A program made the position numbers and the translations under genes. Source: an uncultured Saprospiraceae bacterium (lineage in GTDB: Bacteria; Bacteroidota; Bacteroidia; Chitinophagales; Saprospiraceae). From it: a stretch of 64,000 nucleotides of DNA. The stretch covers positions 4,717 through 68,716 of the forward strand of contig CAZYHJ010000006.1 of assembly GCA_964646645.1 (NCBI GenBank). Reading direction: 5' to 3'. Positions 2,608 through 44,904 of this stretch are shown here, piece by piece (the first letter of the stretch is position 1; each line of letters opens with the position of its first letter). The notes beneath the pieces are model-generated. The model was not told where the DNA came from and made no database searches. It saw nothing but the letters and a program-made list of their open reading frames with translations.

Positions 2608-4302
2608 ATGAGTTCAGAAACCAAGCCCAAAGAGGTCAATATCGACCTCGAGATCGCTCAGAATGCTCCTATACGCCATATCCGTACGATTGCCGAGAAA
2701 CTGGGCATCACGGAGGATGACCTTGAATATTATGGGAAATACAAAGCAAAATTGCCTCATTCCCTGATCAATGAAGATAAGGTCAATCAATGCAATCTGA
2801 TCCTGGTGACGGCTATCAGCCCTACTCCTGCAGGTGAAGGAAAGACTACGGTATCTATCGGATTGACGGACGGTCTTAATAAGATCGGAAAGAAAGCCGG
2901 CGTGGCCCTTCGCGAGCCTTCCCTGGGACCAGTGTTTGGCATTAAAGGCGGAGCAGCCGGTGGAGGATATTCCCAGGTGATTCCCATGGTGGACATTAAT
3001 CTCCACTTTACCGGTGATTTTTCAGCCATTGAAAAAGCCAATAATCTCCTGGCGGCATTGATCGACAATGCGATCCAGTTTAAGAATAAGGCAGACATTG
3101 ATCCGCGTACCATCGTGTGGAAACGCGTCATGGATATGAATGACCGCAGCCTGCGGCATATCGTCATCGGTATCGGAGGTACGGCCAATGGCGTTCCACG
3201 GGAGGACGGTTTTAATATTACCGCGGCTTCTGAGGTGATGGCGATCGTTTGTCTTTCCAAAGATTTTGAAGATCTCAAGCGGAGGTTGGGCAATATTTTC
3301 ATCGGGTATACCTATGATAAGAAGCCGGTTTTCGCGCGCGAGATTAATGCCCAGGGCGCAATGGCCTTATTGTTAAAGGATGCCATCAAACCCAATCTTG
3401 TTCAAACGCTTGAAGGTAATCCGGCCATTATTCATGGTGGACCTTTTGCCAATATTGCGCAGGGAACCAACTCGATCATTGCTACCAAAACAGCCATGTC
3501 GCTTTGTGATTATGTCGTGACAGAGGCAGGTTTCGGCGCAGATCTTGGAGCAGAAAAATTCCTTGACCTCAAATGCCCTGTTGCCGGCATCAAGCCTAAA
3601 GCGATTGTGCTCGTGGCTACCATTCGCGCCCTTCGTCATCACGGAGGCGCAAAGAAGGAAGAATACAATACACCGGATCTTGGCAAGGTGAAAAAAGGTT
3701 TTGAAAACCTTGAGAAACACCTCGAGAATTGTAAAAAGTTTGGCCTCACTCCTGTTGTAGCCATCAACAGTTTTATCTCCGATAGCGCGGAAGAAATCGC
3801 CTACGTTCAGGAGCGTTGCCAGTCTCTGGGTGCGAAAGCAGTCGTATCAAAAGGATGGGCGCATGGTGGAGAAGGGACAAAGGAACTCGCTCAGGCCGTT
3901 GTGGACGTCATTGCCGCCGGAGGTAATAACTACAAGCCACTCTATGACTGGACTCTGTCCATCGAGGAAAAGATCAAAAAAGTAGCTACTGAAATCTATG
4001 GTGCTTCACATATCGAGTACTCTGCTAAATCCAAATCGCAACTCAAGGAATTCGCACGCATTGGTTTTGATAAACTGCCAATCTGTGTGGCCAAGACACA
4101 GAAATCATTTTCGGATGATGAACGAAAGATTGGTCGTCCAACGGACTTTACCATCACCATTCGTGAGTTTGAAGTAGCAGCCGGCGCGGGTTTTGTGGTA
4201 CCCATCCTGGGTGAAATGATGCGTATGCCGGGCTTGCCTGCGATCCCAGCGGCTGAGGGTATGGACATTGATAATGATGGAACTATTACCGGACTTTCCT
4301 AA
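2608..4302 (+). CDS. fhs: formate--tetrahydrofolate ligase
   Basis: 564 aa, PTPAGEGKTT P-loop signature, full-length FTHFS-like sequence. Confidence 0.97.
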   Translation: MSSETKPKEVNIDLEIAQNAPIRHIRTIAEKLGITEDDLEYYGKYKAKLPHSLINEDKVNQCNLILVTAISPTPAGEGKTTVSIGLTDGLNKIGKKAGVALREPSLGPVFGIKGGAAGGGYSQVIPMVDINLHFTGDFSAIEKANNLLAALIDNAIQFKNKADIDPRTIVWKRVMDMNDRSLRHIVIGIGGTANGVPREDGFNITAASEVMAIVCLSKDFEDLKRRLGNIFIGYTYDKKPVFAREINAQGAMALLLKDAIKPNLVQTLEGNPAIIHGGPFANIAQGTNSIIATKTAMSLCDYVVTEAGFGADLGAEKFLDLKCPVAGIKPKAIVLVATIRALRHHGGAKKEEYNTPDLGKVKKGFENLEKHLENCKKFGLTPVVAINSFISDSAEEIAYVQERCQSLGAKAVVSKGWAHGGEGTKELAQAVVDVIAAGGNNYKPLYDWTLSIEEKIKKVATEIYGASHIEYSAKSKSQLKEFARIGFDKLPICVAKTQKSFSDDERKIGRPTDFTITIREFEVAAGAGFVVPILGEMMRMPGLPAIPAAEGMDIDNDGTITGLS

Positions 4303-4337: not shown

Positions 4338-4580
4338 TCAATGTTCTTTTTTTATCTGGTCTGCATCAGGATGTAAGTCCCTTTGCATCCTTTTAAAGCT
4401 ATTTGCCATCCGGATACCTATAAGTAAGGAAGCGATTAGAATGGTTCCGCCCAGTATAAGGCCATAAACATTGTTCATTTTCAGATATACGATTCCTCCG
4501 ATGATCAGCCCTATCAGCATCGGCGAGAGCACTATCCTGCACCACACCAGGATCTCCATGATAAGCGTCGACAGATTCAT
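4338..4580 (-). CDS. small membrane protein (2 TM), unknown function
   Basis: 80-aa ORF with two hydrophobic helices; no recognisable family. Confidence 0.4.
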   Translation of the reverse strand: MNLSTLIMEILVWCRIVLSPMLIGLIIGGIVYLKMNNVYGLILGGTILIASLLIGIRMANSFKRMQRDLHPDADQIKKEH

Positions 4581-4712
4581 TATGTCCCAAATTTAGTCAG
4601 CAAAAACCTCTTTTTCTTTAATACCTCCTTGTTATTTCTCTTAGCAAATTCGGGACAGTTAACTCATTAATCCTTACAGCAGGTAGCATTTATATGCTTT
4701 GCAGATTAATAC

Positions 4713-4785
4713 TACCTCCTGATTCCTTGCCACTTGCTGATTGCCTATTGCCAATTGCCTATTCCTATCTCCTGATTCCTATTTT
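4713..4785. repeat. word-repeat mosaic (ttgcctattgcc / ctgattcct words)
   Basis: cctcctgattccttgccacttgctgattgcctattgccaattgcctattcctatctcctgattccta; 4761-4781 is identical to 45687-45707. Confidence 0.6.
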
Positions 4786-4815
4786 ACAACTATCCAACTC
4801 AAATCATCATTTATA

Positions 4816-4831
4816 CTGACCCTTGTCATTT
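4816..4831 (+). promoter_or_regulatory. candidate Crp/Fnr-type operator CTGACCCTTGTCATTT (TGAC-N4-GTCA)
   Basis: 15/16 identical to 9658-9673. The -7-like element cATTTTTG at 4852-4859 lies 36 nt downstream, the same spacing as the second copy. Confidence 0.45.
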
Positions 4832-4898
4832 CGCAGATGATAGCTAACCCTCATTTTTGATACGTCAATAAGATTCTTAACCTTTAAATCATAAAGTC

Positions 4899-5342
4899 AT
4901 GTCACTCATCAAATGGAATGATCCAATGAAGCTGATGGGGAAGAGGAACTGGGTTGAGAACTTCTTTGCGGAAACCGATGATTTCCTGAAAAACTGGAAT
5001 TGGGATGTCTCTCAGGATGTTCCGGCCGTCAATGTGAAGGATGAAAAAGATTTCTTCATGATTGATGTGGCTGCTCCGGGAATGAAACGGGAAGATTTCA
5101 AGGTGGAAGTCGACAGAGGAGTTTTGATCATCAGCGCTACTACTGAAGAGAAGAAAGAGGAGAAGACGGAGAACTTTAAACGTCAGGAGTTCAGTTACCG
5201 CAATTTCAAACGTTCTTTCTGGCTGCCGGAAAATATAATGCCCGACAAAATCGAGGCCCATTATGAAGATGGCATCCTGAAATTGAAACTGCCCAAAATG
5301 ATGGAAATACCTGAAAAGGTACAGACGATAAAAGTGGTGTGA
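4899..5342 (+). CDS. Hsp20/alpha-crystallin small heat-shock protein
   Basis: 147 aa with an alpha-crystallin domain (PAVNVKDEKDFFMIDVAAPGMKREDFKVEV...EDGILKLKLPK). Confidence 0.95.
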   Translation: MSLIKWNDPMKLMGKRNWVENFFAETDDFLKNWNWDVSQDVPAVNVKDEKDFFMIDVAAPGMKREDFKVEVDRGVLIISATTEEKKEEKTENFKRQEFSYRNFKRSFWLPENIMPDKIEAHYEDGILKLKLPKMMEIPEKVQTIKVV

Positions 5343-5351
5343 TTTCAAATG

Positions 5352-5382
5352 CCGGGGTTCGGCGACGGGCCCCGGTTTTTTT
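5352..5382 (+). terminator. rho-independent terminator after hsp20
   Basis: ccgggg/ccccgg stem followed by a T7 run (ccggggttcggcgacgggccccggttttttt). Confidence 0.7.
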
Positions 5383-5419
5383 ATTTTAGCACCATTATTC
5401 ACGAATATCAGCATTACTC

Positions 5420-5842
5420 ATGGATACCAGCAGACCCGTTTCCGAGATCATGACAAAGCACCTGGTGACCGTTAAACCGGAAGATACCATTGATCGAATC
5501 CATGATCTCTTTGAAAAACACACCTTTCACCACATTCCGGTGGTGGAGAAGAACAAGCTCGTCGGGATCATCTCCAAAACCGACTATGTAAAAATTCGGC
5601 ACATGTTGGCCACCACCTGGTCCGGGGAGACTATTTGCCAGGATATGTATAAGGATATGTGTGCCGGGGATATCATGTCCCGGGAACCCCTTAAAGTGGA
5701 ACCGGCCGATACGATAGGCCTTGCCGCGGATATATTCCGTGCCAATGCCTTACATGCCCTTCCGGTGGTCGAAGAGGGTGAGCTCGTTGGTATAGTTACC
5801 TCTCATGATTTGCTCAATTACGCATACCAGGGCATGCTCTGA
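5420..5842 (+). CDS. CBS-pair domain protein
   Basis: 140 aa, two CBS motifs (HHIPVVEKNKLVGIISKTD; HALPVVEEGELVGIVTSHDLL). Confidence 0.85.
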   Translation: MDTSRPVSEIMTKHLVTVKPEDTIDRIHDLFEKHTFHHIPVVEKNKLVGIISKTDYVKIRHMLATTWSGETICQDMYKDMCAGDIMSREPLKVEPADTIGLAADIFRANALHALPVVEEGELVGIVTSHDLLNYAYQGML

Positions 5843-5890
5843 TTTGCGTTATGCTTATAGTGATTTTCTGATTTATAAATTTTGCTCGTC

Positions 5891-6337
5891 ATGGACAAAT
5901 GGATAGCTGTCAAGCATATTATGACCACTGACCTGGTGACTGCCGATCCGGATGAAGTGCTGGATTCCGTTAAGCACAAGTTGATCTCCAATCACATCCA
6001 GCATATTCCGGTCGTCGAAGGGAAGAAAATACTGGGCATCATCAGTATCAGCGATATGCGACGGATGGAGCATCACTTTACCTTATTTAAATCTGAAAAG
6101 GCTTTGGAAAGCAATCGACAGATTTTTTCCACGATTCTGGCTTCAGAAGTGATGACCAAATCATTGGTCAAGTTGAAGGACACAGACACGGCGTCCATTG
6201 CCGTGGACCTCTTTCGGGAGAATTTGTTCCATGCCCTTCCGGTCGTCAATGACAAAGATCACCTGGTCGGGATGATCACTCCGCTGGATCTGTTAAAATA
6301 TGCCTTTGATGAAAAACCTCCATTAGAGGAAAGTTGA
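5891..6337 (+). CDS. CBS-pair domain protein
   Basis: Two CBS motifs (QHIPVVEGKKILGIISISD; HALPVVNDKDHLVGMITPLDLL). First ATG is at 5891; the listed 5882 start is TTG. Confidence 0.85.
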   Translation: MDKWIAVKHIMTTDLVTADPDEVLDSVKHKLISNHIQHIPVVEGKKILGIISISDMRRMEHHFTLFKSEKALESNRQIFSTILASEVMTKSLVKLKDTDTASIAVDLFRENLFHALPVVNDKDHLVGMITPLDLLKYAFDEKPPLEES

Positions 6338-6349
6338 AAATCAAGTGCT

Positions 6350-7183
6350 ATGAAGATCCTGTTCCCCACTGATTTTTCTACAACGGCAGAAAATGCCTTT
6401 ACCTACGCGATCAAGCTTGCCGACCGTCTCAAAGCTTCCATTACCGTGGTGCATGTCTACGAGTTGCTTCAGTTGCATACCTGGATAGAAGGGGCCACCA
6501 ATATGAACGATCTCAATGAAAAAGTCACCATTGGTGAGTTTGAACATTTCAGGGAACAGATTGACACGTTGAAACGAATAGCCCGCGAAAATCAACTGGA
6601 GCATATTGAAGTAGATTATGTGTTGAAGGAATCAGATTATGTCATTGAAGCCATACAACAGGAAGCAATGACCAACGGAGCGGATTTGATTGTGATGGGG
6701 ACCAAAGGCGCCAGAGGATTAAAGGAAATCTTTTTTGGAAGTGTGGCCACTAAGGTCATGGAGACAGCCCCTTGCCCTGTATTTGTAGTACCTGAAACGG
6801 CCCATTTTAAAGGCATACAGAAAATCGGGCTAACGCTGGAATATAAGCCGGTGGAATATGACCTGATTGAAAAGGCGCTGAGGCTGACCCGTCGGTTGGG
6901 CGGTCACCTGCATTGTGTTCATATTGACAATTATGACGATGAACAGAAGCGATTAGCCTTCCAGGATTACCGGAAGACGTTTGAAGCGGAGCAGGATATA
7001 AGTTTTCACATCCATCACGATCCTGATACGGAAAAGGGAATACTGGATTTCATGAAATTTAATCAGATGGATGTCATTGTGATGTATGTTCATCCCCAGT
7101 CGTTGCTGAAGGATATTTTTTCCTTTAGTATTGCCAAGCGGGTAGCCTATCACAGCGATATTCCCATCCTGGGAATTCATTAA
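6350..7183 (+). CDS. tandem universal stress protein (2x UspA domain)
   Basis: 277 aa. KILFPTDFS...ITVVHV, GADLIVMGTKGARGLKEIFFGSVATKVMETAPCPVFVVP, and a second Usp half ending in DIPILGIH. Confidence 0.9.
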   Translation: MKILFPTDFSTTAENAFTYAIKLADRLKASITVVHVYELLQLHTWIEGATNMNDLNEKVTIGEFEHFREQIDTLKRIARENQLEHIEVDYVLKESDYVIEAIQQEAMTNGADLIVMGTKGARGLKEIFFGSVATKVMETAPCPVFVVPETAHFKGIQKIGLTLEYKPVEYDLIEKALRLTRRLGGHLHCVHIDNYDDEQKRLAFQDYRKTFEAEQDISFHIHHDPDTEKGILDFMKFNQMDVIVMYVHPQSLLKDIFSFSIAKRVAYHSDIPILGIH

Positions 7184-7190
7184 AAACACG

Positions 7191-7233
7191 TAGGGACAGG
7201 TAGGGATATGTAGGGGCAGGTCGCGACCTGCCC
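7191..7233. repeat. decamer word repeat (tagggacagg) ending in a 20-nt perfect palindrome
   Basis: tagggacagg tagggatatg taggggcagg; gggcaggtcg|cgacctgccc at 7214-7233. Confidence 0.6.
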
Positions 7234-7251
7234 TTGTGAAATTTTGATAAT

Positions 7252-7295
7252 AAAAATCGGTAGGGACAGGTCGCGACCTGTCCCTACCGATTTTT
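7252..7295. terminator. 44-nt perfect palindrome; likely bidirectional terminator between convergent usp and response-regulator genes
   Basis: aaaaatcggtagggacaggtcg|cgacctgtccctaccgattttt: a GC-rich stem flanked by A5/T5, ending 2 nt from the regulator stop codon. Confidence 0.75.
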
Positions 7296-7296
7296 A

Positions 7297-8322
7297 TCAA
7301 TTGTGGATGATGATATCCGATCCCTGGATGGATACCAATCCTTCTTCTTTAAATTCCGAAAGGCAGCGGATAATGGTTTCTTTGGCTGTGCCGGCCATAC
7401 TGGCCAGATCTTCGCGAGCGACCGGGATGACCGCGGTGCCATTTTCAAGGTAAAATGCGTGGAGGTCCACGAGGGTAGCGGCCAGTTTCATCCGCACAGA
7501 GCCGAAGGCCTGAAGCAGGAGTTTTTCATCCGCCTGAAGTTGGTTATTGGCCATTTCCTGGAGAAAATAATACGCGATGGAAGGATGATGCAAGACGAAT
7601 GAGATAAAATCATCCCGCTTGATCGGAATCAACTCAAGGTCCTCAAAAGCCTTTACCGTTTCCTGGTATTTGGTGCCTGAGAAGGCAGAGGATACACCAA
7701 CGATCATCGGGTACTGATATAGCCGGGTCACCACTTCTTTTGCGTAGTTGTCAATTTTAGTAGCGATCGCCCTTCCGGATTTTATGGCAAAAACAAAACG
7801 ACAGGTTTGACCTTCGGCAAACAGCAGATCCTTTTTCCTGACCATCCTTGTTTCACTATCCAGGAGGGATTCCGGAAGAGTCTGCATCACTTGTTCTGCG
7901 GTAGGCAGGTTGACTATGGAAGCAGCGACTCCGGCATGTCCCTGATGCGATCTGTGCTTATTTAGTCTGAATTCAATTGTGTTGAGTAACTCAACATCAT
8001 CAAAGGGTTTGGTGATATAATCATCTGCCCCCAATGTCATGCCCCGTCTGACATCAGTCAATTCGGTCTTAGCGGTAAGGAATAAAAATGGGATCATTGC
8101 CGTGGCTTCATTTTTGGACAGAATCCGGAGCACGGTATATCCATCCATTTCCGGCATCATGATATCACAGAGGATCAGATCCGGTACATGTGCAACAGCT
8201 GCTTCCACCCCTAATTTACCATTAGGGGCTGTAACAGTTTCGTATCCGGAGAGCGTCAACAATTCGCTCAGATTTTCTCTGACGTCATTGTTGTCTTCGA
8301 TGACCAGGATTTTATTTTTCAT
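7297..8322 (-). CDS. response regulator with REC domain fused to Crp/Fnr-type effector domain and HTH
   Basis: REC: KILVIEDN, DLILCDIMMPEMDG, KPF. C-terminal cNMP-binding-like barrel plus HTH REDLASMAGTAKETIIRCLSEFKEEGLV. Start taken at MKNKILVIEDN, overlapping the kinase stop by 11 nt. Confidence 0.9.
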   Translation of the reverse strand: MKNKILVIEDNNDVRENLSELLTLSGYETVTAPNGKLGVEAAVAHVPDLILCDIMMPEMDGYTVLRILSKNEATAMIPFLFLTAKTELTDVRRGMTLGADDYITKPFDDVELLNTIEFRLNKHRSHQGHAGVAASIVNLPTAEQVMQTLPESLLDSETRMVRKKDLLFAEGQTCRFVFAIKSGRAIATKIDNYAKEVVTRLYQYPMIVGVSSAFSGTKYQETVKAFEDLELIPIKRDDFISFVLHHPSIAYYFLQEMANNQLQADEKLLLQAFGSVRMKLAATLVDLHAFYLENGTAVIPVAREDLASMAGTAKETIIRCLSEFKEEGLVSIQGSDIIIHN

Positions 8323-9649
8323 AGCTAAGTGGTAGGGTGATATAAAAGGTGGTGCCTTTGCCTTGTTCACTTTCGAACCTGAGCGTGCCCTTCAGGGTGT
8401 GAAGATAGGATAAGACGATATTTAAACCCAAACCGGTTCCTGGAACGTTCACGGCATTTGAAGCTCTGAAAAATCTGGAGCCGATATGTTTCTGGTCCTC
8501 CGGGGGTATGCCCATGCCTTCGTCCGCGATGATCATCTGGAGGAGGCCCTCTTCAATGAAAATGGTGCATCTGACCTTAGTCCCTGCTTCCGAGTACTTG
8601 ATGGCATTGGAAATCAAATTATAGAGAATATTCCGGAGGATGTTTTTATCGGTTTTCATCTCCAGATCATCAAAATCGTGATGGCAGAGAAACTGCTGTT
8701 GTTGCTTCAATAGCCCGTCTACATCGGCTTTAAGCTCAGAGAGAAGTCCATGGACAGAAAAGGTGCTTATGACCGGTACAAATTGACCTTCTTCCAACCG
8801 GGTGATCGAAAGAAAGTCCATGAGAATATTGTTGAGATGGGAGACACTTGATTTTATACGCTCCACGTGACGATTGCGGTCGGCGTCCTGTTCGGTAGTC
8901 GTGTATTTGGATATCAGTGCGGCAGAAGAAAGGATACTTGCGAGCGGTGTCTTAAACTCATGAGAGGCCATGGACACAAATCTCGATTTGAGCGAACTCA
9001 ACTCCTTCTCCTTTTCCAGGGATTTATGCAGTTCATCCCTTGCCGCCACCAGGGCGGTTTCATAAATTTTATGCTTTTCAATCGACTCATTGAGTTGTCG
9101 GTTAGTATCCAGGAGCAAGTTGACCGTATCCTGTAGTTCTGTTGTACGTTCGATGACCAACTGCTCAAGCTCATGATTTAATTTGATGATTTCATCCTGC
9201 ACTTTTTTCATAGGCGTGAGATCCTGCAGGATGCCTGTGAAAAAGTGGTTTTGATCGACGATGATTTCGCTTACCGCCAACCGGACCGGAAACAGGGTGC
9301 CGTTTTTTCTCCGGCCTTCGACTTCGCGGCCGATTCCAATGATCTGTTTATGACCAGTCGAGAGATAATTTTCCAGGTAGTGGTCATGGCCTTCTCTATG
9401 GGGAGATGGCATGAGCATGGATACATTTTCACCAATTAATTCTTCGATGGAATACCCAAAGAGGTGGGTCACCGCAGAATTAGCCATGTGAATCCTCCCT
9501 CTGGTATCAATGACGATAATACCATCGATTGCCGTTTCCACCACAGATTCAAGGACATGTGCGGAGTTGGCATGGGGAAATGTATAAAAGTCAGACACAG
9601 GGCTAAGATATCCATTGTCTATCGCGCGGGCAATGCTGACTATAATCAA
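8312..9649 (-). CDS. soluble PAS sensor histidine kinase, FixL-like heme-PAS type
   Basis: PAS with LMPSPHREGHDHYL...IIGIGREV...FTGILQDLT. H-box SHEFKTPL, N-box NAIKYS, G-boxes DEGMGI and GTGLGL. The start is TTG (9649) or GTG (9598); there is no ATG upstream of the PAS. Confidence 0.9.
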   Translation of the reverse strand: MIIVSIARAIDNGYLSPVSDFYTFPHANSAHVLESVVETAIDGIIVIDTRGRIHMANSAVTHLFGYSIEELIGENVSMLMPSPHREGHDHYLENYLSTGHKQIIGIGREVEGRRKNGTLFPVRLAVSEIIVDQNHFFTGILQDLTPMKKVQDEIIKLNHELEQLVIERTTELQDTVNLLLDTNRQLNESIEKHKIYETALVAARDELHKSLEKEKELSSLKSRFVSMASHEFKTPLASILSSAALISKYTTTEQDADRNRHVERIKSSVSHLNNILMDFLSITRLEEGQFVPVISTFSVHGLLSELKADVDGLLKQQQQFLCHHDFDDLEMKTDKNILRNILYNLISNAIKYSEAGTKVRCTIFIEEGLLQMIIADEGMGIPPEDQKHIGSRFFRASNAVNVPGTGLGLNIVLSYLHTLKGTLRFESEQGKGTTFYITLPLSYEK

Positions 9650-9657
9650 TTTATTGG

Positions 9658-9673
9658 CTGACCCCTGTCATTT
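9658..9673 (+). promoter_or_regulatory. candidate Crp/Fnr-type operator CTGACCCCTGTCATTT (TGAC-N4-GTCA)
   Basis: Near-identical to 4816-4831. A perfect TAnnTTTG (TACCTTTG, 9694-9701) lies 36 nt downstream. The site is 9 nt upstream of the kinase TTG start on the other strand. Confidence 0.45.
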
Positions 9674-9862
9674 TGACCTTTTATCCTTTCAAATACCTTT
9701 GAGAGGGTGAGTTTTGCATGAGGGGTAAGTATAATGTAATCCCGATTTCCATCGACACCTTGCTTTTTTGGCGCATACGTTTTTTATATTAAAAAATAAT
9801 TAATGCGTTAATAGACAGATTGTCAATCAATTAGATTTTATCACACCAATTTTTATAACACA

Positions 9863-10303
9863 ATGGATTTTACAGCACCTGTTTCAAAATGGATGACCAC
9901 CAAAATGGTCACTGTGGTTCCGGGAGATTCGGTTTCCGTGGTCAAGGATATTTTTGACCAGCAACGGATTCACCATATCCCGGTCGTGAAGTATCGTACC
10001 CTGGTTGGATTGATCAGTAAATCTGATTTTCTCCATTTTCTCAGGGGTATGGAGACCACCCCTTATGACAAGTTGGTTGAAAAAAGCCGGCTTGAGCATT
10101 ATAAGGCAGAAGATATTATGACTACGGGACTGGCGACACTTGAGCCCAATGAAAGGCTTAACGTGGCCCTTCAACTTTTTAGTGAGAACCTTTTTCATGC
10201 CATTCCCATTGTCGAGAAGGAGGAGTTAGTGGGTATCCTCACCACATTTGATATTATCAGAGCATTGGTAGAGGAAGATAATAAACGAATTAAATCAACC
10301 TGA
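9863..10303 (+). CDS. CBS-pair domain protein
   Basis: 146 aa with HHIPVVKYRTLVGLISKSD and HAIPIVEKEELVGILTTFDII. Confidence 0.85.
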   Translation: MDFTAPVSKWMTTKMVTVVPGDSVSVVKDIFDQQRIHHIPVVKYRTLVGLISKSDFLHFLRGMETTPYDKLVEKSRLEHYKAEDIMTTGLATLEPNERLNVALQLFSENLFHAIPIVEKEELVGILTTFDIIRALVEEDNKRIKST

Positions 10304-10307
10304 TTTC

Positions 10308-11423
10308 ATGCAATGCTCTAATGCCATTGAAGCAATGAATATAGAGTTGTATAGTATTCGCGGGTTTACAGGAAGTGCGCTGAAGCAGAAGCTTGAGCGC
10401 GAGTTGGTGGCGCACCATATGCATGTACCGGTGGATGAGATCAACCAGGTCGACCGATTCATCAAAGCTGGGCTGGTGGCTGTTCCTGCATTTAAGATTG
10501 GGGACAAGGTGATCCAGCATCCGCATAATGGAGATGTCGAAGAGACCGTCAGGAATGTAATGGATTATATCCTCGCGGAGCATTTGAACAACATTCTTGT
10601 GCCGGTTGATTTTTCCGAAGGGTCCTTCAATGCCATCGCATTCGCCAGAGCTATTGCGGTCAAAATGGGCTATGGTATAACACTGGTGCATATTCACCAG
10701 ACGCTTTATGATCCCATTTCCGCAGGGGCCCTGGATGTACAATTGCTGAAGGATGTCAATACCCGTCTCCAGCAGTTAGTGGAGGAACTCAGCGTGCAGG
10801 CTATTTCGGATGGGCAAGATATTCATTTCAATGCCCATATGGAAGTAGGGGAGACCTCCAGCAGTCTGATTGAATTGCTGGATCATGGAAAATATGAAAT
10901 GATGGTCATGGCTACCAAATCCACCGATAATGCCATGCGCAGATTTTTTGGAACCGTGTCTTCAGAAGTCAGCCGAAGAAGCCATAAGCCTGTGGTCGTT
11001 ATTCCGCCTCATACTGAAGCGAAGTTTCCCGGAAAGTTAGTCATTGGATTTACCGAAGAACTATTTCATGAAAATGTATTGGATGATATCATTGAATTTG
11101 GCTGCATGAATAATGCTTTTTTTGATTTCATCCATATCACCAATGACCAGCACCATTTTGAGCGTTTGAAGGATAAATTGTACCAGCGGCTCGTGACTAA
11201 GCGCGATTTACTTTGCGGTTTCAATATCAAATGCCTGGAGGGGGATGATGGAAAAGTACATGAGAAGATCTCTCGGTACGCAAATGAAGTACGCGCCGGT
11301 ATGATTGTTCTCGTGACGCATCAGAGAAAGTTCCTGGAAGCATTGAGGCATGAAAGCGTAACCAAAAAGGCCCTTCATCACCCTGAACTTCCGATCCTGA
11401 TTATACACCAGGCAAAAGATTGA
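10308..11423 (+). CDS. tandem universal stress protein with N-terminal thioredoxin-fold-like extension lacking CxxC
   Basis: N-terminal ~90 aa resemble small Thioredoxin_3-type proteins (IELYS...VPAFKIGDKVI) but have RGFTGS where CxxC is expected. Two Usp domains follow (ILVPVDFSEGS..., MMVMATKS..., PILIIH). Alternative start at 10335. Confidence 0.8.
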   Translation: MQCSNAIEAMNIELYSIRGFTGSALKQKLERELVAHHMHVPVDEINQVDRFIKAGLVAVPAFKIGDKVIQHPHNGDVEETVRNVMDYILAEHLNNILVPVDFSEGSFNAIAFARAIAVKMGYGITLVHIHQTLYDPISAGALDVQLLKDVNTRLQQLVEELSVQAISDGQDIHFNAHMEVGETSSSLIELLDHGKYEMMVMATKSTDNAMRRFFGTVSSEVSRRSHKPVVVIPPHTEAKFPGKLVIGFTEELFHENVLDDIIEFGCMNNAFFDFIHITNDQHHFERLKDKLYQRLVTKRDLLCGFNIKCLEGDDGKVHEKISRYANEVRAGMIVLVTHQRKFLEALRHESVTKKALHHPELPILIIHQAKD

Positions 11424-11432
11424 TGCCTTTCA

Positions 11433-13946
11433 TCAGACAGGAGACGAAACGCGTTTTATTGCTTTGACCGCTTCAAACCAAAATACTGAAAGGGCCGCTA
11501 CGCCTGTACAAATCAGGATGTCCTTCCAGTGTGGGGTAGCCAGTTGGAAAAAAGCAGTGATGGGCTTGAAATAGAGCATGGAGCTCAGGATCAGTAGGGT
11601 CAGCCCGATAATTCCGTAAAGTAATTTATTGTTGTAGCGCAGCGTAGTCAGAAAGGAGTAATAAAACGATCTGTTGACAAGCGTCAGGAATATATTAGAG
11701 ATGATCAGCGTAGAGAAAACCATCGTTCTTACATAGGTTTCCGTACCACCTCTCCACAGTGAAAACTGGTATATAGCCAGCACGCCTGCTGTAATCATTA
11801 AGCCTTGCAATATGCTCATGCCCAGTTCTCTGAAGTTGAGAAATGTCTCTGTCATACGACGCGGAGGCTGCTGCATCGTATTGGCTTCCATGGGTTCATT
11901 TTCAAATACAATGGAGCAGGTAGGCCCCATGACCAGTTCAAGAAAGATCACATGTACCGGCGTGAAAATATCAGGGTAAACCCATCCCAAAAAAAGTGGA
12001 AGGGATACCGTAAGGATAATCGGAATATGGATCGAGATGATGTATTGGATCGCCTTCTTGAGATTGGCATAAATTCGTCTGCCGGTGGCAATTGCTGATA
12101 CCAGTTTGCCGAGATCGTCGTTCAGGATAATAAGGGCGGCCGCGTTTTTAGCCATTTCGGTTCCCTTTTGCCCCATGGCGATTCCTATATGCGATGATTT
12201 TAGCGCAGGACCGTCGTTGACTCCATCCCCCAACATCGCCACGATTTGCTGATCTTGTTTCAGCGCATTTACAGCGGCGAGTTTGGCTTCAGGATACATG
12301 CGGGTAAACAATGCTTTTTCGGCGACGGTCCTCACAAAGGCAGACTCATCCATCCTCATGAGTTCCTCCCCATCTACGGCTTCACCTGTATTTTTAAGTC
12401 CCGCTTTTAACGCAATCGCTTTTGTAGTCTCCGCGTTGTCACCGGTGATGATCTTGACCTTGATGCCTGCTTCCTCAAATTGCCTGAATACATTTTCAAT
12501 CCCTGTTTTGGGGGGATCATAAAAGATAACAAGCCCAATAAAGGAAAAATTAAAATCACGCTGGTCATCGGGAAATTCATGGCCACTATATTCAGCCCTG
12601 GCTACCCCTAACATCCTGTATCCCTTTGCGGCAAGTGATTGTAACGTGTCAATGATTTTACTCCGTTGTGCGGGAGATAATCCACAGGCTTGAAGGATGG
12701 CTTCCGGGGCGCCTTTGGAGGCAATGATTCTGCGTCCTGCCTTGTCCTCAAAAATATGGGTCATCATAGGCGGTTGACCACCCAGCGGATATTCATGCGC
12801 CATGGTGAAATCATCCCGCTGATCTTCGCTGATATACATTTCGTATGCCTGATGGATCGACTTTTCCATCGGATCAAATGGATTTGGTTCGCTTGCCCAC
12901 ATGGCTGCCTCTATGACGTTCATGCCTTTGTTGGCGAAGGCATCAACTTCCATGATCAGGTGGTCATGTTCAAAATCATATACCCCGATGAGGCTCATCC
13001 TGTTCTCGGTAATGGTACCTGTCTTATCCGAGCAAATGACGGTAGCGCTCCCTAAAGTTTCCACCGTTCTTGTTTTCTTGACGATGACTCCATCTTTCAT
13101 CAGACGACGTGAACCAAGCGCCATAAACGTCGTAAAGGCTACGGGGATTTCTTCAGGCAAAATGGACATGGCCATGGTGAGGCCTTTGAGCAGGCTTGCG
13201 AGGATATTTTTACTTTCGGCAAACTGTACGGCCCACACCATGAGAAAAACCAGGATCCCCACAAGCGCCATTTTTTTGACAAACGATTCTATTTGTTGTT
13301 GCAGTGGGGTGGGTTCTTCCCGTATCTCCACCATCGACTTTCCGATCTGGCCGATACGTGTTGAGCTGCCTGTTTTATCCACCTGATATACAGCCAATCC
13401 GGAAGAGGCTAATGTCCCACTGTATACCCGTGGGTCCGAACTTGATGTTGATTTGAAAATAGCCTGCGCCTCACCGGTCAGAGCGGACTCATTGACCGAA
13501 AAATCATTGGAATGGACGATCACACCATCCGCATTAATCGTTGCACCCTCTTCTGCCAGGACAAGATCACCCGGAACGATTTCGGTGGTCAGAATATGCT
13601 GCGGCTCTCCATTGCGAATGACTTTGCTCAGCGGTGTATTCAATGCTTCCAGCGCCTCCAGCGCCTTCCGGCTGCGATTGTCCTGATAGAAAGAGATGCC
13701 GGAGACAATCAATATCGCAGCCAGCATGAAATAGGCCTCTCCCAACTGTCCCATCCAGATATAGATCAACGCGATAGCCAGCAATAGCAGCAACATCGGT
13801 TCACGCATGATCTCAAAAAGCACGTGCCACCAAGTACGTTTTGCTTTCTGATGTTGAATGTTCAGCCCGTATTGTTTTCTCAATGACAAGACTTCCGCAT
13901 CTGAAAGACCGGTGAGATGAGAAGGAATGTTGAGCCGGGTGGACAT
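11433..13946 (-). CDS. cation-transporting P-type ATPase (P2-type, Ca2+-ATPase-like)
   Basis: 837 aa: DKTGTITEN phosphorylation site, TGDN, GDGVNDGPALK hinge, PEEIPV in TM4, Cation_ATPase_N-like start. Confidence 0.95.
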   Translation of the reverse strand: MSTRLNIPSHLTGLSDAEVLSLRKQYGLNIQHQKAKRTWWHVLFEIMREPMLLLLLAIALIYIWMGQLGEAYFMLAAILIVSGISFYQDNRSRKALEALEALNTPLSKVIRNGEPQHILTTEIVPGDLVLAEEGATINADGVIVHSNDFSVNESALTGEAQAIFKSTSSSDPRVYSGTLASSGLAVYQVDKTGSSTRIGQIGKSMVEIREEPTPLQQQIESFVKKMALVGILVFLMVWAVQFAESKNILASLLKGLTMAMSILPEEIPVAFTTFMALGSRRLMKDGVIVKKTRTVETLGSATVICSDKTGTITENRMSLIGVYDFEHDHLIMEVDAFANKGMNVIEAAMWASEPNPFDPMEKSIHQAYEMYISEDQRDDFTMAHEYPLGGQPPMMTHIFEDKAGRRIIASKGAPEAILQACGLSPAQRSKIIDTLQSLAAKGYRMLGVARAEYSGHEFPDDQRDFNFSFIGLVIFYDPPKTGIENVFRQFEEAGIKVKIITGDNAETTKAIALKAGLKNTGEAVDGEELMRMDESAFVRTVAEKALFTRMYPEAKLAAVNALKQDQQIVAMLGDGVNDGPALKSSHIGIAMGQKGTEMAKNAAALIILNDDLGKLVSAIATGRRIYANLKKAIQYIISIHIPIILTVSLPLFLGWVYPDIFTPVHVIFLELVMGPTCSIVFENEPMEANTMQQPPRRMTETFLNFRELGMSILQGLMITAGVLAIYQFSLWRGGTETYVRTMVFSTLIISNIFLTLVNRSFYYSFLTTLRYNNKLLYGIIGLTLLILSSMLYFKPITAFFQLATPHWKDILICTGVAALSVFWFEAVKAIKRVSSPV

Positions 13947-13948
13947 AG

Positions 13949-14141
13949 CGTGAATGGTGAGTTGTGAGTTGTGAATTGTCAGTTGTGAGTGGTCAATGCG
14001 TTGTGTTAACTATGAAGTCCCCTTCAGGCGTCGTGCTGAGCGGAGTCGAAGTAGGATTTAGGGGCCAAAGTATCGTGAGTTGTGAGCAGTGAAACTTGAG
14101 TCGTAATTCGTAATTACTAATTCGTAATTACTAATTCGTAA
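13949..14141. repeat. mosaic of heptamer word repeats filling the SulP-ATPase intergenic region
   Basis: (gtgagtt/gtgaatt/gtcagtt)n at 13949-13994; the gaagtcccctt...ggatttaggggcc element at 14024-14065; (tcgtaat/tactaat)x6 at 14101-14142 abutting the SulP stop. Confidence 0.8.
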
Positions 14142-14144
14142 TTT

Positions 14145-15716
14145 TTAATGTAATTCAATCGTCTCTACCTCTGGTATATTAATCATCTTCAGTTGAATAT
14201 GTTTACGATGTGCTTTGGATTTAAAGTCGTGGAAAATTTCAAGAATATCCTGGTCAATATAAACACTGTCTGCTCCATTGATTTCCACAACAGCATATTC
14301 GGGGATCTTGTCCAGCATTTCCATGATCCTTTTTTTATTGATAAAGCTCACATTGAGGGCCAGTTCGATGACATAATGCTTCATGTGGCCATCATGCTTT
14401 TCCTTGATGACATAACCGGCCTTGATCGTGTTCTTTATCAGGAAGTACACGGCATAGGTGATACCAATCAGTACGCCAATGAGAAGATCGGTAGCCAGAA
14501 TCGCAATGACGGTGACTAAGAAAGGAATAAACTGTTCGCGTCCTTGTTTATAGATGGCTTTGATCATCGAGGGTTTGGCTAGGTTGTATCCGGTACGCAC
14601 CAGGATGACCGCCAGTACACAATATGGAATCAGATTAATGAGTGGGATCGCAACGACTATGGCCAGCAACAACCATATACCGTGCATAAATGCTGAAAGC
14701 CTTGTCCTGGCACCAGCTTCAGCATTGGCTGAACTTCTCACAATCACCGCGGTAATAGGGAGTCCGCCTAATAATCCACTCAGAAAATTACCGGTGCCCT
14801 GGGCAACGAGTTCGCGATTTTGTGGCGTGATCCTGTTTAGTGGATCGAGTTTGTCGACCGCCGTGATGCTGAGCAAGGTCTCCAGTGACGCCACAAAGCA
14901 AATGACCACCGCATTTTGCCAGATCAGTCCATTACTAAAGATTTGATTGAAGTCTGCCGGTTTGATCTGACGAAGTATATCATGAGGAATATTGACGAAT
15001 TGCGATGGCTTGATCTGTGTAGTTGTAAATAATTGATTAAATGCAATGGCCAGGAGAATCCCCGAAAGCACCGTAATGAAGGAGGTGGGCAGAAAACTGA
15101 TTTTTGCGGCGATGTACTTTTTCCAGAGAATCAGGATCAGTAAGGTCATAACAGAGATCGTAACAGCTCCTGTCGAAGTATGGTGATATAAACTTCCAAT
15201 GCCGTGAAATCCGTTTTTGAAGGTGATCAGATTAAAAATTTCATTGGTCCAGAAATCTGGTTGGTCATACCCCACAAGTAGGGGGATCTGTTTGGAGATG
15301 AGGATAATCCCGATCGCGGTCAGCACGCCTTTGATGACGGCCGATGGAATGAAATGGGTAAAACCACCTAATCTGAAGATGCCGAGTAATACCTGTAAGA
15401 GTCCGGCAACAGCCACTGAAACAAAGAAGATTTCTATTGCGCCTAATTCGGTAATCGCAGTCGCGCATATCGCCGTAAGGCCAGCCGCAGGTCCGCTGAC
15501 ACTGAGTTCTGATTTGCTGATCAGTGAGATGATGATTCCACCAATGATACCCGCCAGAATACCTGAATACACCGGAGTACCCGATGCCAGCGATACACCC
15601 AAACAAAGTGGAAGGGCAACGAAGAAAACCGTGATACTGGCCTTAAAGTCATGACGACTGAAGGTAAGCCAATAGTATCGAATCTTTCGTGGATTCCAGA
15701 TCCTGGCAAAATCCAT
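14145..15716 (-). CDS. SulP family anion transporter with C-terminal STAS domain
   Basis: 523 aa, multi-TM Sulfate_transp-like core (LPLCLGVSLASG, VAQGTGNFLSGLLGGLPIT) plus a soluble C-terminal STAS-like domain. Confidence 0.88.
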   Translation of the reverse strand: MDFARIWNPRKIRYYWLTFSRHDFKASITVFFVALPLCLGVSLASGTPVYSGILAGIIGGIIISLISKSELSVSGPAAGLTAICATAITELGAIEIFFVSVAVAGLLQVLLGIFRLGGFTHFIPSAVIKGVLTAIGIILISKQIPLLVGYDQPDFWTNEIFNLITFKNGFHGIGSLYHHTSTGAVTISVMTLLILILWKKYIAAKISFLPTSFITVLSGILLAIAFNQLFTTTQIKPSQFVNIPHDILRQIKPADFNQIFSNGLIWQNAVVICFVASLETLLSITAVDKLDPLNRITPQNRELVAQGTGNFLSGLLGGLPITAVIVRSSANAEAGARTRLSAFMHGIWLLLAIVVAIPLINLIPYCVLAVILVRTGYNLAKPSMIKAIYKQGREQFIPFLVTVIAILATDLLIGVLIGITYAVYFLIKNTIKAGYVIKEKHDGHMKHYVIELALNVSFINKKRIMEMLDKIPEYAVVEINGADSVYIDQDILEIFHDFKSKAHRKHIQLKMINIPEVETIELH

Positions 15717-15721
15717 AGAAT

Positions 15722-16117
15722 CTATGTTTTAGCATGTTTGTACAAATAAAGGCCAATCAGGAATAAAGCTACACCAATACTTCCATAGAGCAGCTGGAGA
15801 TAGGAGTACTGCCGGATCATCAGCATCTGTACCAGGATCCATCCTGATAAGATGATGCCTTCTGCAAGGATCAGCCATGTATAATGCTTCCAACGAAGAG
15901 CGGTCCAAACCAGCGCCACGATGGACAATATACCATTGAAGGTGAACAGGATAATGCCTGGGATCAGAAAATCTTTAAACGGACTGTGTTCAAGAAAGGT
16001 GACCGGCATTTGAAGGTCACTGCCTGTAGGATCCATGATCAGGCTCCAGCCTCCAAATATTGCACTTACGCCATTAAAAAGTAAGAGTATCAATGCAAGA
16101 ACGTTAAGTGTTTTCAT
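15722..16117 (-). CDS. membrane protein (4 TM), unknown function
   Basis: 131-aa hydrophobic ORF, 5 nt upstream of the SulP start; likely co-transcribed. Confidence 0.5.
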   Translation of the reverse strand: MKTLNVLALILLLFNGVSAIFGGWSLIMDPTGSDLQMPVTFLEHSPFKDFLIPGIILFTFNGILSIVALVWTALRWKHYTWLILAEGIILSGWILVQMLMIRQYSYLQLLYGSIGVALFLIGLYLYKHAKT

Positions 16118-16165
16118 GATTCAAGTGTTGAAAATAAGAAAATGATCTTGCTCTTGTAATTGCTA

Positions 16166-16846
16166 TCAGGCATTCCATTTTCTCGATTTAAGAAAAATGG
16201 CTAGCATCAACATGATCATCCAGATATTCCAAAAGAGATAGAGTCCCATACCTGTCGATGTCAGCACCCAACCCGGTTCCAGTATTGTCCATATCGGACT
16301 GATCATACTGATGAGCCCATTCCCAATCATCAACCACTTAATGAAGTTGCTTTTATTTTGATAAAAAGTTGCTCCAGCCCATGTCGCCCATCCCAGAAAG
16401 CAATATCCCCACATTTCATTGGCCCAACAAAAGGATTCAGGATTGGCCATGGATAACCCTGCAATCAGGCTTTCATATTCTGGCCGAAAGTCTTCCACCA
16501 GATTTGGAATAAAACTAATTTGACAAACATAATTGAATGCAATCAACCCCAGAAATACGATAGTCAGGGCAAGGGAAATGACCATTGAAGGTCTGATTTG
16601 TTTTGTGGAAGTAAAATCATAGGATAAATGACCCACAGCCAGTAGTAGCATTCCTGCAAGAATGAGAAATCCAAGATAGTAGGGAAGGGACTGGATTGGA
16701 TGATAATAGGTAATGTATTGAGAAACCGTCAGCCAATCAGGTTGTGGATGAGTGATCAAGACTATTGACACTGCCATTGGGCCAGAGCAAAAAAATCCAA
16801 TCAAACTAATAAGCGCCCCTGCCCTAATCATTTTTAAAGCTTTCAT
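16166..16846 (-). CDS. membrane protein (multi-TM), unknown function
   Basis: Hydrophobic ORF. First ATG (MKALKMIRAG) is at 16846; the listed start at 16888 is TTG. Confidence 0.5.
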   Translation of the reverse strand: MKALKMIRAGALISLIGFFCSGPMAVSIVLITHPQPDWLTVSQYITYYHPIQSLPYYLGFLILAGMLLLAVGHLSYDFTSTKQIRPSMVISLALTIVFLGLIAFNYVCQISFIPNLVEDFRPEYESLIAGLSMANPESFCWANEMWGYCFLGWATWAGATFYQNKSNFIKWLMIGNGLISMISPIWTILEPGWVLTSTGMGLYLFWNIWMIMLMLAIFLKSRKWNA

Positions 16847-16971
16847 TCGCACTGGTAGTTTAATCAAAGCCAATGGCAATTTAACCAACTACTGCATTAA
16901 AATTCAATTCCCGCTGAACGATAAAACCAATTTCTGCTGTCAAGTTTAATCTTAATCTAAAATAAAATATC

Positions 16972-19660: not shown

Positions 19661-19726
19661 GGCAAACGGAATGGCTCCGGGAGTTGCATTTACATTAAGG
19701 TAATCTTTTTCGATGATATAAAATGA

Positions 19727-19762
19727 AAAGGCAGCGAATACCTAATGGAATCCGCTGCCTTT
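19727..19762 (-). terminator. terminator downstream of yceI-like gene
   Basis: aaaggcagcg/cgctgccttt 10-bp stem, followed on the minus strand by ttcatttta. Confidence 0.65.
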
Positions 19763-19776
19763 CCGGGGGACAAGCA

Positions 19777-20334: not shown

Positions 20335-20352
20335 GTTGTGATAAGGTTTAAA

Positions 20353-20597
20353 TGTTTAGTTGTTTAATTGTTTAACTGTTGGTTGGTTTATGGGTTTATA
20401 AGATTAGGAGCTTAGAGGCTTAGGGATTGAAGGTTTATAAGTTTATGGGTTTATAGGTTTATGGGTTTATGAGATTAGAAGATTAGTGGCTTAGGGATTT
20501 TTGAGTTTACTATTGGTGAGTTGATCCGAACCTCAAGTTTATAAGTTTATGTTGGATTTCCTGACTCCTTGCCCTATGCTCTATGCCCTATGCTCCC
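20353..20597. repeat. ~200-nt array of octamer words (gtttatgg/gattagaa/gcttaggg) followed by ctatgc heptamers
   Basis: About 25 consecutive 8-nt units in near-constant register at 20353-20552, then ccctatgctctatgccctatgctc ending 2 nt from the pirin stop. Confidence 0.85.
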
Positions 20598-27920: not shown

Positions 27921-27944
27921 AAAGTTTGATATACATCAAACTTT
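27921..27944. promoter_or_regulatory. 24-nt perfect palindrome containing a consensus FNR/Crp-family box TTGAT-atac-ATCAA
   Basis: aaagtttgat-atac-atcaaacttt, 85 nt upstream of the lipoprotein/haloperoxidase operon start. Confidence 0.55.
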
Positions 27945-29904: not shown

Positions 29905-30089
29905 CGGAATAATATTTTATTAAAGTTCATCCCGGGCACTCAAAATCCCTATGATGTCAATCATTTGCCTGTGTGAGGTCAGTCATATGAAATTTATTAG
30001 TATTTCATTTGGTTTATGATACTATAGATGGGTGCTTTATCATCCAGTATGGAGGGATGTGTATGCATCTCAATTTTATACAACGAACA

Positions 30090-44892: not shown

Positions 44893-44904
44893 GGAAAAGA
44901 TACT

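Follow-up and report, generated by a model that had tools for sequence, protein, structure and literature searches.

The window analysed here, a stretch of 64,000 nucleotides from contig CAZYHJ010000006.1 of an uncultured Saprospiraceae bacterium, contains a cluster of stress genes arranged around a FixL-like sensor histidine kinase and a response regulator in which a receiver domain (REC) is fused to a Crp/Fnr-type DNA-binding module. Judged from its sequence, the cluster appears to be a resident low-oxygen stress regulon under a one-step two-component system, a reading to which a probability of about two in three is assigned. The strongest result is the promoter geometry, in which palindromic boxes stand at a fixed distance from Bacteroidota-type promoter elements. 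All coordinates refer to the window, L-numbers denote the related loci used for comparison and P-numbers denote homologous proteins. The nearest named homologues of the regulator are encoded by Saprospiraceae metagenome-assembled genomes.

The genes of the cluster, including those for universal stress proteins (USP), are reported below, together with the evidence for each assignment.

4899-5342, plus strand: Hsp20/alpha-crystallin, first gene of an Hsp20-CBS-CBS-USP operon (Pfam HSP20, E=1.6e-22)
5420-5842, plus strand: CBS1, a stand-alone CBS pair (Pfam CBS, two stretches, E=6e-33)
5882-6337, plus strand: CBS2, a stand-alone CBS pair (Pfam CBS, two stretches, E=5e-26), with an uncertain start codon, TTG 5882 or ATG 5891
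6350-7183, plus strand: USP_A, a tandem USP of 277 aa (Pfam Usp, two stretches, E=5e-38)
7297-8322, minus strand: regulator, REC + cNMP_binding (PF00027) + HTH_Crp_2 (PF13545), 341 aa (Pfam)
8312-9598, minus strand: kinase, PAS + HisKA + HATPase_c, 428 aa (Pfam)
9863-10303, plus strand: CBS3, a stand-alone CBS pair (Pfam CBS, two stretches, E=2e-26)
10308-11423, plus strand: USP_B, 371 aa, two USP domains after an N-terminal extension of about 90 aa (Pfam)
11433-13946, minus strand: P2-type cation P-type ATPase, Cation_ATPase_N + Cation_ATPase_C (Pfam)
14145-15716, minus strand: SulP-family anion transporter (Pfam)
15722-16117, minus strand: hydrophobic protein of 131 aa in the SulP operon (open reading frame, ORF)
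16166-16888, minus strand: hydrophobic protein of about 226-240 aa, heading the SulP operon (ORF)

Pfam searches confirmed the inventory of a preliminary description of this DNA, namely Hsp20, three CBS pairs, two tandem USPs, the P-type ATPase and SulP, together with a phosphoribosyltransferase (PRTase) and a DLH-like hydrolase located elsewhere in the window; the domains proposed for the regulator were likewise recovered. SulP had been described as a SulP-STAS protein: the transporter part stands, and the C-terminal STAS domain is weakly discernible, its match to PF01740 falling below threshold (E=0.0083, 16.3 bits, cut-off 22.6). The NCBIfam DauA model aligns to this protein up to residue 515.

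The box motif, TGAY-N4-RTCA, was defined after aligning the intergenic region between kinase and CBS3 with those of four relatives. It corresponds to the 5-N4-5 pattern of FNR/FixK-type sites, and the perfect sequence TTGAT-N4-ATCAA is found in two relatives. A narrower operator, exactly TGAC-N4-GTCA, was rejected: it occurs 8 times in the window against 0.83 expected, but is nearly absent from L081 and L084. TGAY-N4-RTCA boxes number 22 in the window, against 6.9 expected. Seven are intergenic, with intergenic DNA accounting for 12.8% of the sequence, and 14 of the 22 lie within coding regions, also above expectation. One box, at 45831, is inside a small MoaD-like ORF and not intergenic; another, at 25772, at the 5' end of a second Crp/Fnr gene, has no properly spaced -7 element and was treated as a chance match. 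The boxes associated with the cluster and the accompanying -7 elements are the following.

4817-4828, no strand assigned: box TGACCCTTGTCA, 76 bp upstream of the hsp20 start codon (motif scan)
4852-4859: -7-like element CATTTTTG, 33 bp from the centre of the hsp20 box (motif scan)
9637-9648 and 9659-9670: tandem boxes TGACTATAATCA and TGACCCCTGTCA, 22 bp apart centre to centre, in the divergent kinase/CBS3 promoter region
9694-9701, plus strand: perfect Bacteroidota -7 element TACCTTTG for the CBS3-USP_B operon, conserved in L085-L088
16972-16983 and 16994-17005: tandem boxes TGATATCCGTCA and TGACAATAGTCA, 22 bp apart, upstream of the membrane-protein/SulP operon
Minus strand, 33 bp from the proximal box of the SulP operon: -7-like element TAAACTTG

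The element at 9694-9701 is located 33 and 55 bp from the centres of the two kinase/CBS3 boxes; transcription of the CBS3-USP_B operon is accordingly predicted to start near 9706, with some 155 nt of 5' leader. An Rfam search of the window, this leader included, gave no match. On the kinase side, the distances of the tandem pair to the kinase start, 44 and 66 bp, are the same in L085-L088, and no other conserved palindromes were found in the kinase promoter region when window and relatives were aligned.

The same spacing emerges from a larger sample of 99 boxes, collected from the window and 18 related loci. Measured from the box centre, the distance to a -7 element TAnnTTTG with at most one mismatch is exactly 33 bp in 25 cases and exactly 55 bp in 25, against 0-6 cases for each of the other offsets between 14 and 79 bp. 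This spacing puts the proximal box near -41 and the second near -63, a class-II-like arrangement. The composite motif (box, 33 bp, -7 element) occurs four times in the window, in front of the hsp20, CBS3 and membrane-protein/SulP operons and of an outlying lipoprotein gene, against 0.14 in shuffled sequences. Over 289 kb of regulator-bearing loci 27 matches were found at offset 33, against 0-2 at control offsets. Control loci from Bacteroidota gave five matches, all in L014, and none in the 111 kb of the others; as L014 is itself another box-rich stress locus, this control set is not clean. Position relative to genes is also biased, since 26 of 77 boxes in related loci fall in the 5.7% of sequence located immediately 5' of USP, CBS, HSP20, ATPase or SulP ORFs (binomial P=6e-14). 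The earlier proposal that the stress genes are wired to the regulator is directly supported, at the sequence level, by boxes set at a fixed distance from a -7 element before the Hsp20, CBS3-USP and membrane-protein/SulP operons, and placed beside the kinase-regulator operon itself.

Conservation of the cluster was evaluated in close relatives, defined as contigs encoding regulators 49-82% identical to that of the window. A first contig scan, driven by generic REC peptides, had provided only L001-L012 as true relatives and no close Saprospiraceae genome. The kinase-regulator core is syntenic, with CBS, USP and P-type ATPase genes, in all seven Saprospiraceae relatives examined. The conserved order is, on one side, P-type ATPase, long USP and CBS gene, divergent from the kinase, and, on the other, USP, CBS, CBS and Hsp20, convergent with the regulator. 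Because CBS and USP genes flank the pair in close relatives, and the P-type ATPase is present in nearly all of them, the clustering is not due to chance. Details vary: L087 and L088 are devoid of Hsp20 and USP_A, the number of USP genes reaches seven in L084, genes for acetyl-CoA hydrolase and for a short-chain dehydrogenase are inserted in L081, and SulP is found in L086, behind tandem boxes. Boxes also precede CBS-CBS in L087 and L088, Hsp20 and divergent USPs in L084, and the ATPase in L081.

The term island, used in the preliminary description, is a misnomer. Base composition is flat, the cluster being the same as its flanks, and synteny with relatives extends to the genes beyond its borders, HflX, M29 peptidase and FTHFS at one end and TPR, LigB and YceI at the other; the locus is therefore a resident chromosomal one, not horizontally acquired.

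At about 40% identity the pair is found in Chitinophagaceae, Niabella, Segetibacter, Flavipsychrobacter, Jiulongibacter and Flavobacterium, with partial synteny across Chitinophagaceae, Cytophagales and Flavobacteriia. The neighbourhood comparison suggested in the preliminary description thus revealed synteny kept among close relatives and, in part, among distant ones. By using local hidden Markov models (HMMs), trained on the relatives of the window, USP, Hsp20, ATPase or SulP genes were detected within 10 kb in 7 of 12 distant loci, and almost none in 68 unrelated control loci from other phyla; the choice of training set and the origin of the control loci limit this comparison. The ATPase HMM mixed two classes: its matches in L002, L005 and L008 are FixI-type P1B ATPases, and the P2-type enzyme of the window is found among distant loci only in L007 and L009.

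The regulator has features of both a receiver and a Crp/Fnr-type effector. Alignment with homologues shows that the acidic pocket, the phospho-acceptor Asp, the Thr and the Lys of REC are all kept, and the effector half matches Crp/Fnr structures with E-values from 8e-11 to 2e-5 (FNR 1e-6, FixK2 2e-5). No FNR-type N-terminal Cys cluster for [4Fe-4S] binding was found, the N-terminus being the REC domain, and the conserved Arg-Ser/Thr of the cAMP pocket is missing in a reading of the family alignment. The partner of the kinase thus differs from FixJ, which combines REC with a LuxR/NarL-type helix-turn-helix (HTH). The kinase stop overlaps the regulator start by 11 nt, in the window and in the close relatives L081 and L085-L088, an arrangement typical of a cognate pair. 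The family is large, with 1975 cluster representatives (50% identity clusters) at E<=1e-30, and the best 150 of these are mostly full-length, at 340-355 aa. None of the solved structures has the REC-cNMP-Crp HTH architecture.

The 3' end of the regulator gene is altered in this genome by the following element.

7243-7296, no strand assigned: perfect palindromic element located where the USP_A and regulator genes converge; its core GTAGGGACAGGTCGCGACCTGTCCCTAC has AAAAATCG/CGATTTTT on either side

It takes the place of the last 9 codons of the regulator, so that the window protein stops after IIIHN. The protein of a near-identical genome, P0388, ends with ...IIIHNVHKLAELRY, and this tail is conserved across the regulator family. 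The window contains the element once in full and, near 7215-7240, once in part; a REP-like element and a bidirectional terminator are both possible identities for it.

Several points weigh against control by this regulator, or against the evidence for it. The regulator of the window, deprived of its conserved last 9 residues by the inserted palindrome, may be impaired in function. Sequence by itself cannot assign a box to this protein, and the second Crp/Fnr protein (25090-25824) has a very similar recognition helix (ETIVR versus ETIIR). The kinase's own -7-like element is found at 36 rather than 33 bp, which implies a leaderless kinase mRNA, and the -7 match of the DLH-PRTase promoter is poor. 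Directly upstream of the P-type ATPase no box was found, either in the window (13947-14144) or in L085-L088. Finally, the motif was partly defined on some of the loci later reused for the statistics.

Some of these points favour a different arrangement, in which another Crp/Fnr protein, encoded at 25090-25824 or elsewhere, binds the boxes, and the kinase-regulator pair is either an additional target or the top of a FixJ-to-FixK-like cascade, rather than controlling the stress genes directly. Besides the near-identical recognition helix and the C-terminal truncation of the regulator, this would fit the stand-alone Crp gene flanking the cluster in L084, the stand-alone Anr-like regulators used by the lxa locus of Burkholderia (see below) and L014, where five such promoters are found and yet only a single-domain REC protein was seen in the 20-kb locus. 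Such an arrangement is nevertheless unlikely. The sole DNA-binding domain in the conserved pair is of the Crp type, the boxes are the only conserved palindromes in the promoter region of the pair and they are enriched around it in 18 loci belonging to several classes. In addition, the second Crp/Fnr protein contains no cysteines; this rules it out as an Fe-S FNR and leaves it with no evident means of sensing O2 itself.

The pair, taken as the regulator of the boxes, would be switched by the kinase, which has solved relatives among the oxygen sensors of rhizobia. In phmmer searches against solved structures, its PAS domain matches FixL from Rhizobium meliloti (1d06, E=1.4e-29) and Bradyrhizobium japonicum (1dp6, E=5.9e-27). 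The proximal heme-ligand His, in the sequence 'GHDHY', aligns with that of both proteins and is invariant in 17/17 aligned Bacteroidota kinases. The Arg of the distal motif 'IIGIGR' also aligns with both FixL sequences. In FixL, the distal Arg contacts bound O2. The heme-PAS-like kinase of the preliminary description is thus upheld as a FixL heme-domain homologue. Its transmitter contains HisKA and HATPase_c, with a 'SHEFKTPL' H-box and ATP-binding G-box motifs recognizable in the translation. Comparison with homologues indicates GTG 9598 as the most likely start (428 aa), rather than TTG 9649. By analogy with FixL, the protein is best described as a soluble heme-PAS histidine kinase, predicted to bind heme and to be inhibited by O2.

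The targets in distant Bacteroidota point to the same signal. In loci carrying the same pair and promoter type, FixI/CcoI-type copper ATPases with ATPase-cat_bd are found in L005 and L008, a FixI-type ATPase is adjacent to the pair in L002 and the CcoNO cbb3 oxidase lies behind the same promoter type in L008. cbb3 oxidase and fixI genes are textbook targets of FixK and FNR. The same promoter type also drives tandem USPs (L001, L007, L009), Hsp20 (L007), the di-iron repair protein RIC/ScdA (L001) and a Pyridox_ox_2 protein (L005). O2 is the likely signal because of the FixL-type residues of the sensor and of the cbb3/FixI targets.

The same wiring could respond to nitric oxide (NO), carbon monoxide (CO) or redox state, and the genes would then form a nitrosative or general stress regulon. 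Heme-PAS and heme-GAF sensors do bind NO and CO, and DosS and DosT respond to both (PMC3721108); RIC/ScdA in L001 is an Fe-S repair gene, and in distant kinase homologues the position of the distal Arg is occupied by Met, Leu, Ile or Arg. With the Arg of 'IIGIGR' retained in the Saprospiraceae clade, and cbb3 oxidase and FixI genes among the targets in related genomes, a signal other than O2 is improbable. That the locus is a mere conserved neighbourhood of generic stress genes, which are common and often clustered in the case of USP, CBS and Hsp20, with no common regulator and with palindromes due to chance or terminator-like, is highly improbable: the excess of boxes within coding regions would fit it, but the sharp 33/55-bp phasing with the -7 element, the excess of the composite motif, the concentration of boxes 5' of stress genes and the conservation of box positions among relatives all argue against it.

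According to the low-oxygen regulon reading, O2 bound to the heme would keep the soluble kinase inactive, as in FixL, and autophosphorylation would occur as O2 falls. The kinase would then phosphorylate the receiver of the co-translated regulator, a step suggested by the domain architecture of the two proteins. As the regulator carries a Crp/Fnr-type module where FixJ has a LuxR-type domain, FixJ and FixK would in effect be one protein. The activated dimer is expected to bind the TGAY-N4-RTCA boxes, often present as two copies 22 bp apart, and, from centres near -41 and -63, to activate Bacteroidota-type promoters in a class-II-like manner. Probable targets include the Hsp20-CBS-CBS-USP operon, the CBS-USP operon, the kinase-regulator operon itself, implying autoregulation, the membrane-protein/SulP operon, with possible read-through into the P-type ATPase, and the lipoprotein/PAP2 cluster; the DLH-PRTase operon is probably a further one. 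At O2 limitation the small heat-shock protein (sHsp) may protect proteins, USP and CBS proteins may bind adenine nucleotides and sense energy charge, and ion homeostasis may be adjusted.

A broader proposal is that kinase and REC-Crp/Fnr regulator form a single-step O2-sensing system found across the phylum, which in aerobic Bacteroidota would act as master regulator both of micro-aerobic respiration (cbb3, FixI) and of a DosR/lxa-like programme of hypoxic survival. This extension is tentative, its chances being rated a little short of even. If it is true, three phyla have each, independently, brought the 'dormancy' set (sHsp, USP, CBS, P-type ATPase, PRTase-hydrolase, RtcB-archease, M50-CBS, PfkB) under a different sensor/regulator type. 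Literature searches revealed no characterised O2-sensing transcription system for aerobic Bacteroidota (Saprospiraceae, Chitinophagaceae, Cytophagales, Flavobacteriia), and no paper on this kinase/regulator type in the phylum, in agreement with the preliminary description. RgzAB of Flavobacterium johnsoniae, the only mention of FixL in Bacteroidota found, was set aside, being an unrelated GAF hybrid kinase. These groups inhabit sludge flocs, sediments, biofilms and rhizospheres, where O2 fluctuates. The locus offers a testable candidate, with a sensor, an unusual regulator, an operator with defined promoter geometry, a first list of targets and a large family.

A low-oxygen stress regulon under Crp/Fnr-type control is of an already known kind; the novelty lies in the phylum and in how the parts are wired, with a FixL-type kinase acting directly on a REC-Crp/Fnr fusion and with boxes on Bacteroidota-type promoters. 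The closest published analogue, overlooked in the preliminary description, is the lxa locus of Burkholderia cenocepacia, which contains USPs, alpha-crystallin, a SulP transporter, a cation P-type ATPase, CRP/Anr-type regulators and a two-component system; its induction by low oxygen was measured, a TGA-N6-TCA motif was reported, the overlap with DosR was noted by the authors and a role in survival without growth under O2 depletion was proposed (PMC3721108). The two loci share the clustering of USPs, alpha-crystallin, SulP, cation ATPase, Crp-type regulator and TGA-N6-TCA. The lxa locus differs in belonging to Betaproteobacteria, in its size of about 50 genes, which include those for ribonucleotide reductase, polyhydroxyalkanoate synthesis and nitroreductase, and in relying on stand-alone Anr-like proteins; CBS-pair proteins go unmentioned in PMC3721108. 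Its low-oxygen induction was measured, whereas the window locus is known from its sequence.

The FixL-FixJ-FixK systems of Alphaproteobacteria (Sinorhizobium, Bradyrhizobium, Caulobacter) resemble the present one in the heme-PAS kinase, whose proximal His and distal Arg are shared, in the final Crp/Fnr-type effector for TTGAT-N4-ATCAA-like boxes near -41 and in the cbb3 oxidase and fixI genes targeted in related Bacteroidota. In contrast, neither FixJ nor a separate fixK is found here, the fusion of REC to the Crp/Fnr module making the cascade a single step; the kinase is short, soluble and equipped with a single PAS; promoters are of the Bacteroidota type, with the TAnnTTTG -7 element; and the targets in this genome are stress genes, not nif/fix.

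The parallel with the mycobacterial DosR regulon, drawn in the preliminary description, holds at the level of domain families and not of orthology, so that 'dormancy' is used by analogy. The inventory given there is correct: DosR includes HspX, tandem USPs, the CBS-pair protein Rv2626c, the ATPase Rv1997, the PRTase-containing Rv0571c and Rv2030c (PMC5309233, PMC4410610), thus sharing alpha-crystallin, tandem USP, CBS pair, ATPase and PRTase with the window. A heme-based kinase and tandem operator sites are also common features (PMC3177182). Orthology to Rv2623 and Hrp1 is not supported: searches of solved structures with USP_A and CBS1 at E<=1e-5 retrieved proteins from archaea and other sources, none of them a USP or CBS protein of M. 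tuberculosis. With Rv2626c, HspX and CtpF, too, domain families are all that is shared. DosR moreover relies on the GAF-heme sensors DosS and DosT, a NarL-type regulator and a different operator, unlike the PAS-heme kinase and REC-Crp regulator of the window. The USP/sHsp/CBS/ATPase 'hypoxic persistence' set of Mycobacterium and Burkholderia would recur under a third type of control, opening poorly understood proteins to comparison.

Locus L014 (4700-19000, from the Flavobacteriaceae metagenome-assembled genome CAVXJE010000006.1) was fetched for its REC match. The genes found with its five promoters, all with box and -7 element at 33 bp, encode a flavin reductase, DUF302, PEP synthase-PfkB, a single-domain REC protein, a baeRF release-factor-like protein, an M50 peptidase with CBS, dodecin, methyltransferase-archease-RtcB and a tandem USP. 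The set, with RtcB, archease, M50-CBS protease and PfkB behind the same boxes, strikingly mirrors the DosR block Rv2623-Rv2631 plus Rv2029c of M. tuberculosis.

In Pseudomonas aeruginosa, Anr-dependent USPs are induced via an FNR-type box at O2 depletion and are needed for anoxic survival, as cited in PMC3721108. USPs behind an FNR-type box are the shared trait; Anr, in contrast, senses O2 via its own Fe-S cluster, with no kinase, and the genes are scattered.

Outside the cluster, candidate members of the regulon are found in one region.

27347-27847, minus strand: gene for a 166-aa lipoprotein, with a perfect TTGATATACATCAA box at 27926-27939 and a -7-like element at 33 bp
28606-29235, minus strand: PRTase (Pfam)
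29254-29904, minus strand: DLH-like hydrolase (Pfam)
29951-29964: box ATGATGTCAATCAT, 53 bp upstream of the DLH-PRTase operon (motif scan)

From its promoter, the lipoprotein gene is a probable outlying member; its product has no family match and no homologue in related loci. It is followed on the same strand by a PAP2/vanadium-haloperoxidase-like gene and by the second Crp/Fnr gene (25090-25824), and this row could be a FixK-like second tier of the regulon. The hydrolase-PRTase operon is kept in L089 and in Flavobacterium luteum (L090), with a box 55-65 bp upstream of its first gene in both; in L090 it is flanked by dodecin and by an erythromycin-esterase gene. Rv0571c is annotated as a putative PRTase (PMC5309233), and Rv2030c combines a PRTase domain with similarity to erythromycin esterase (PMC4410610). 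With an upstream box in three genomes, the resemblance to Rv0571c suggested in the preliminary description is plausible.

As to the individual products of the cluster, the best solved relative of CBS1 is MJ1225. USP_A keeps the ATP-binding motif G-x2-G-x9-G(S/T) in its N-terminal domain, the second domain being degenerate. USP_B has a conserved length of 359-385 aa among relatives; its N-terminal extension (10308-10580), with no significant Pfam match, looks like a thioredoxin fold (Thioredoxin_3-like) without CxxC motif and contains '...AGLVAVPAFKIGDKVI...'. The ATPase gene sits downstream of the SulP operon on the same strand, and the top NCBIfam model of its product is PMR1-type IIA, yet under the equivalog cut-off. 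The two hydrophobic proteins encoded upstream of SulP have no family match and no homologue in related loci.

A small membrane protein is encoded next to hsp20, and its membership in the cluster is uncertain.

4338-4580, minus strand: two-helix membrane protein of 80 aa, divergent from hsp20 (ORF)

No Pfam family was matched by this protein. In some relatives an unrelated small membrane ORF separates the kinase gene from the CBS/USP operon; located at 8355-8585 in L081 and 8343-8663 in L084, it encodes a two-helix protein (MKLF.L...YLLM...). The corresponding region of the window, 9706-9862, contains no such ORF, only the predicted 155-nt CBS3 leader. In two Saprospiraceae, at 233-3947 of L085 and in the 152-kb contig of P0061, Proton_antipo_M, Complex1_49kDa and Oxidored_q6 precede the P-type ATPase; the module hints at an anaerobic energy function, of a group-4 [NiFe]-hydrogenase-like or Mrp/complex-I-like kind. 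L084 also encodes, at 19057-20376, 8 kb from the kinase-regulator pair, a protein with Fer2, guanylate-cyclase and globin domains, a putative globin-coupled cyclase and second heme-based gas sensor.

Many intergenic spacers of the window are made up of tandem heptamer repeats, with periods of 7 or 14 bp (GTGAGTT, TCGTAAT, CGTGAGT, TGCCCTA, GCAATAA and others), for example at 2333-2524, 13950-13998, 14101-14143, 20346-20593, 45635-45676, 47562-47624, 53214-53468 and 54679-54904. The 'CTCCTGATTCCTA' motif recurs at 4712-4790 and 45690-45715. The repeats look like a genome-wide feature.

A molybdenum-cofactor cluster extends over 42656-54420 and includes MoaA, MoeA, TauE, a MoaD-like ORF (about 45750-45990), MoaE, FdhD and MoaC/MoaB. 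It is accompanied at 48818-53220 by a NuoF-like protein and a molybdopterin formate-dehydrogenase-like pair, and a formate-tetrahydrofolate ligase (2608-4302) adjoins the stress cluster; together, these genes suggest formate/C1 metabolism. Between the MoaD-like and MoaE genes, two small adjacent ORFs (46066-46530) resemble, by reading of their translations, a toxin-antitoxin pair of the HicB/HicA type.

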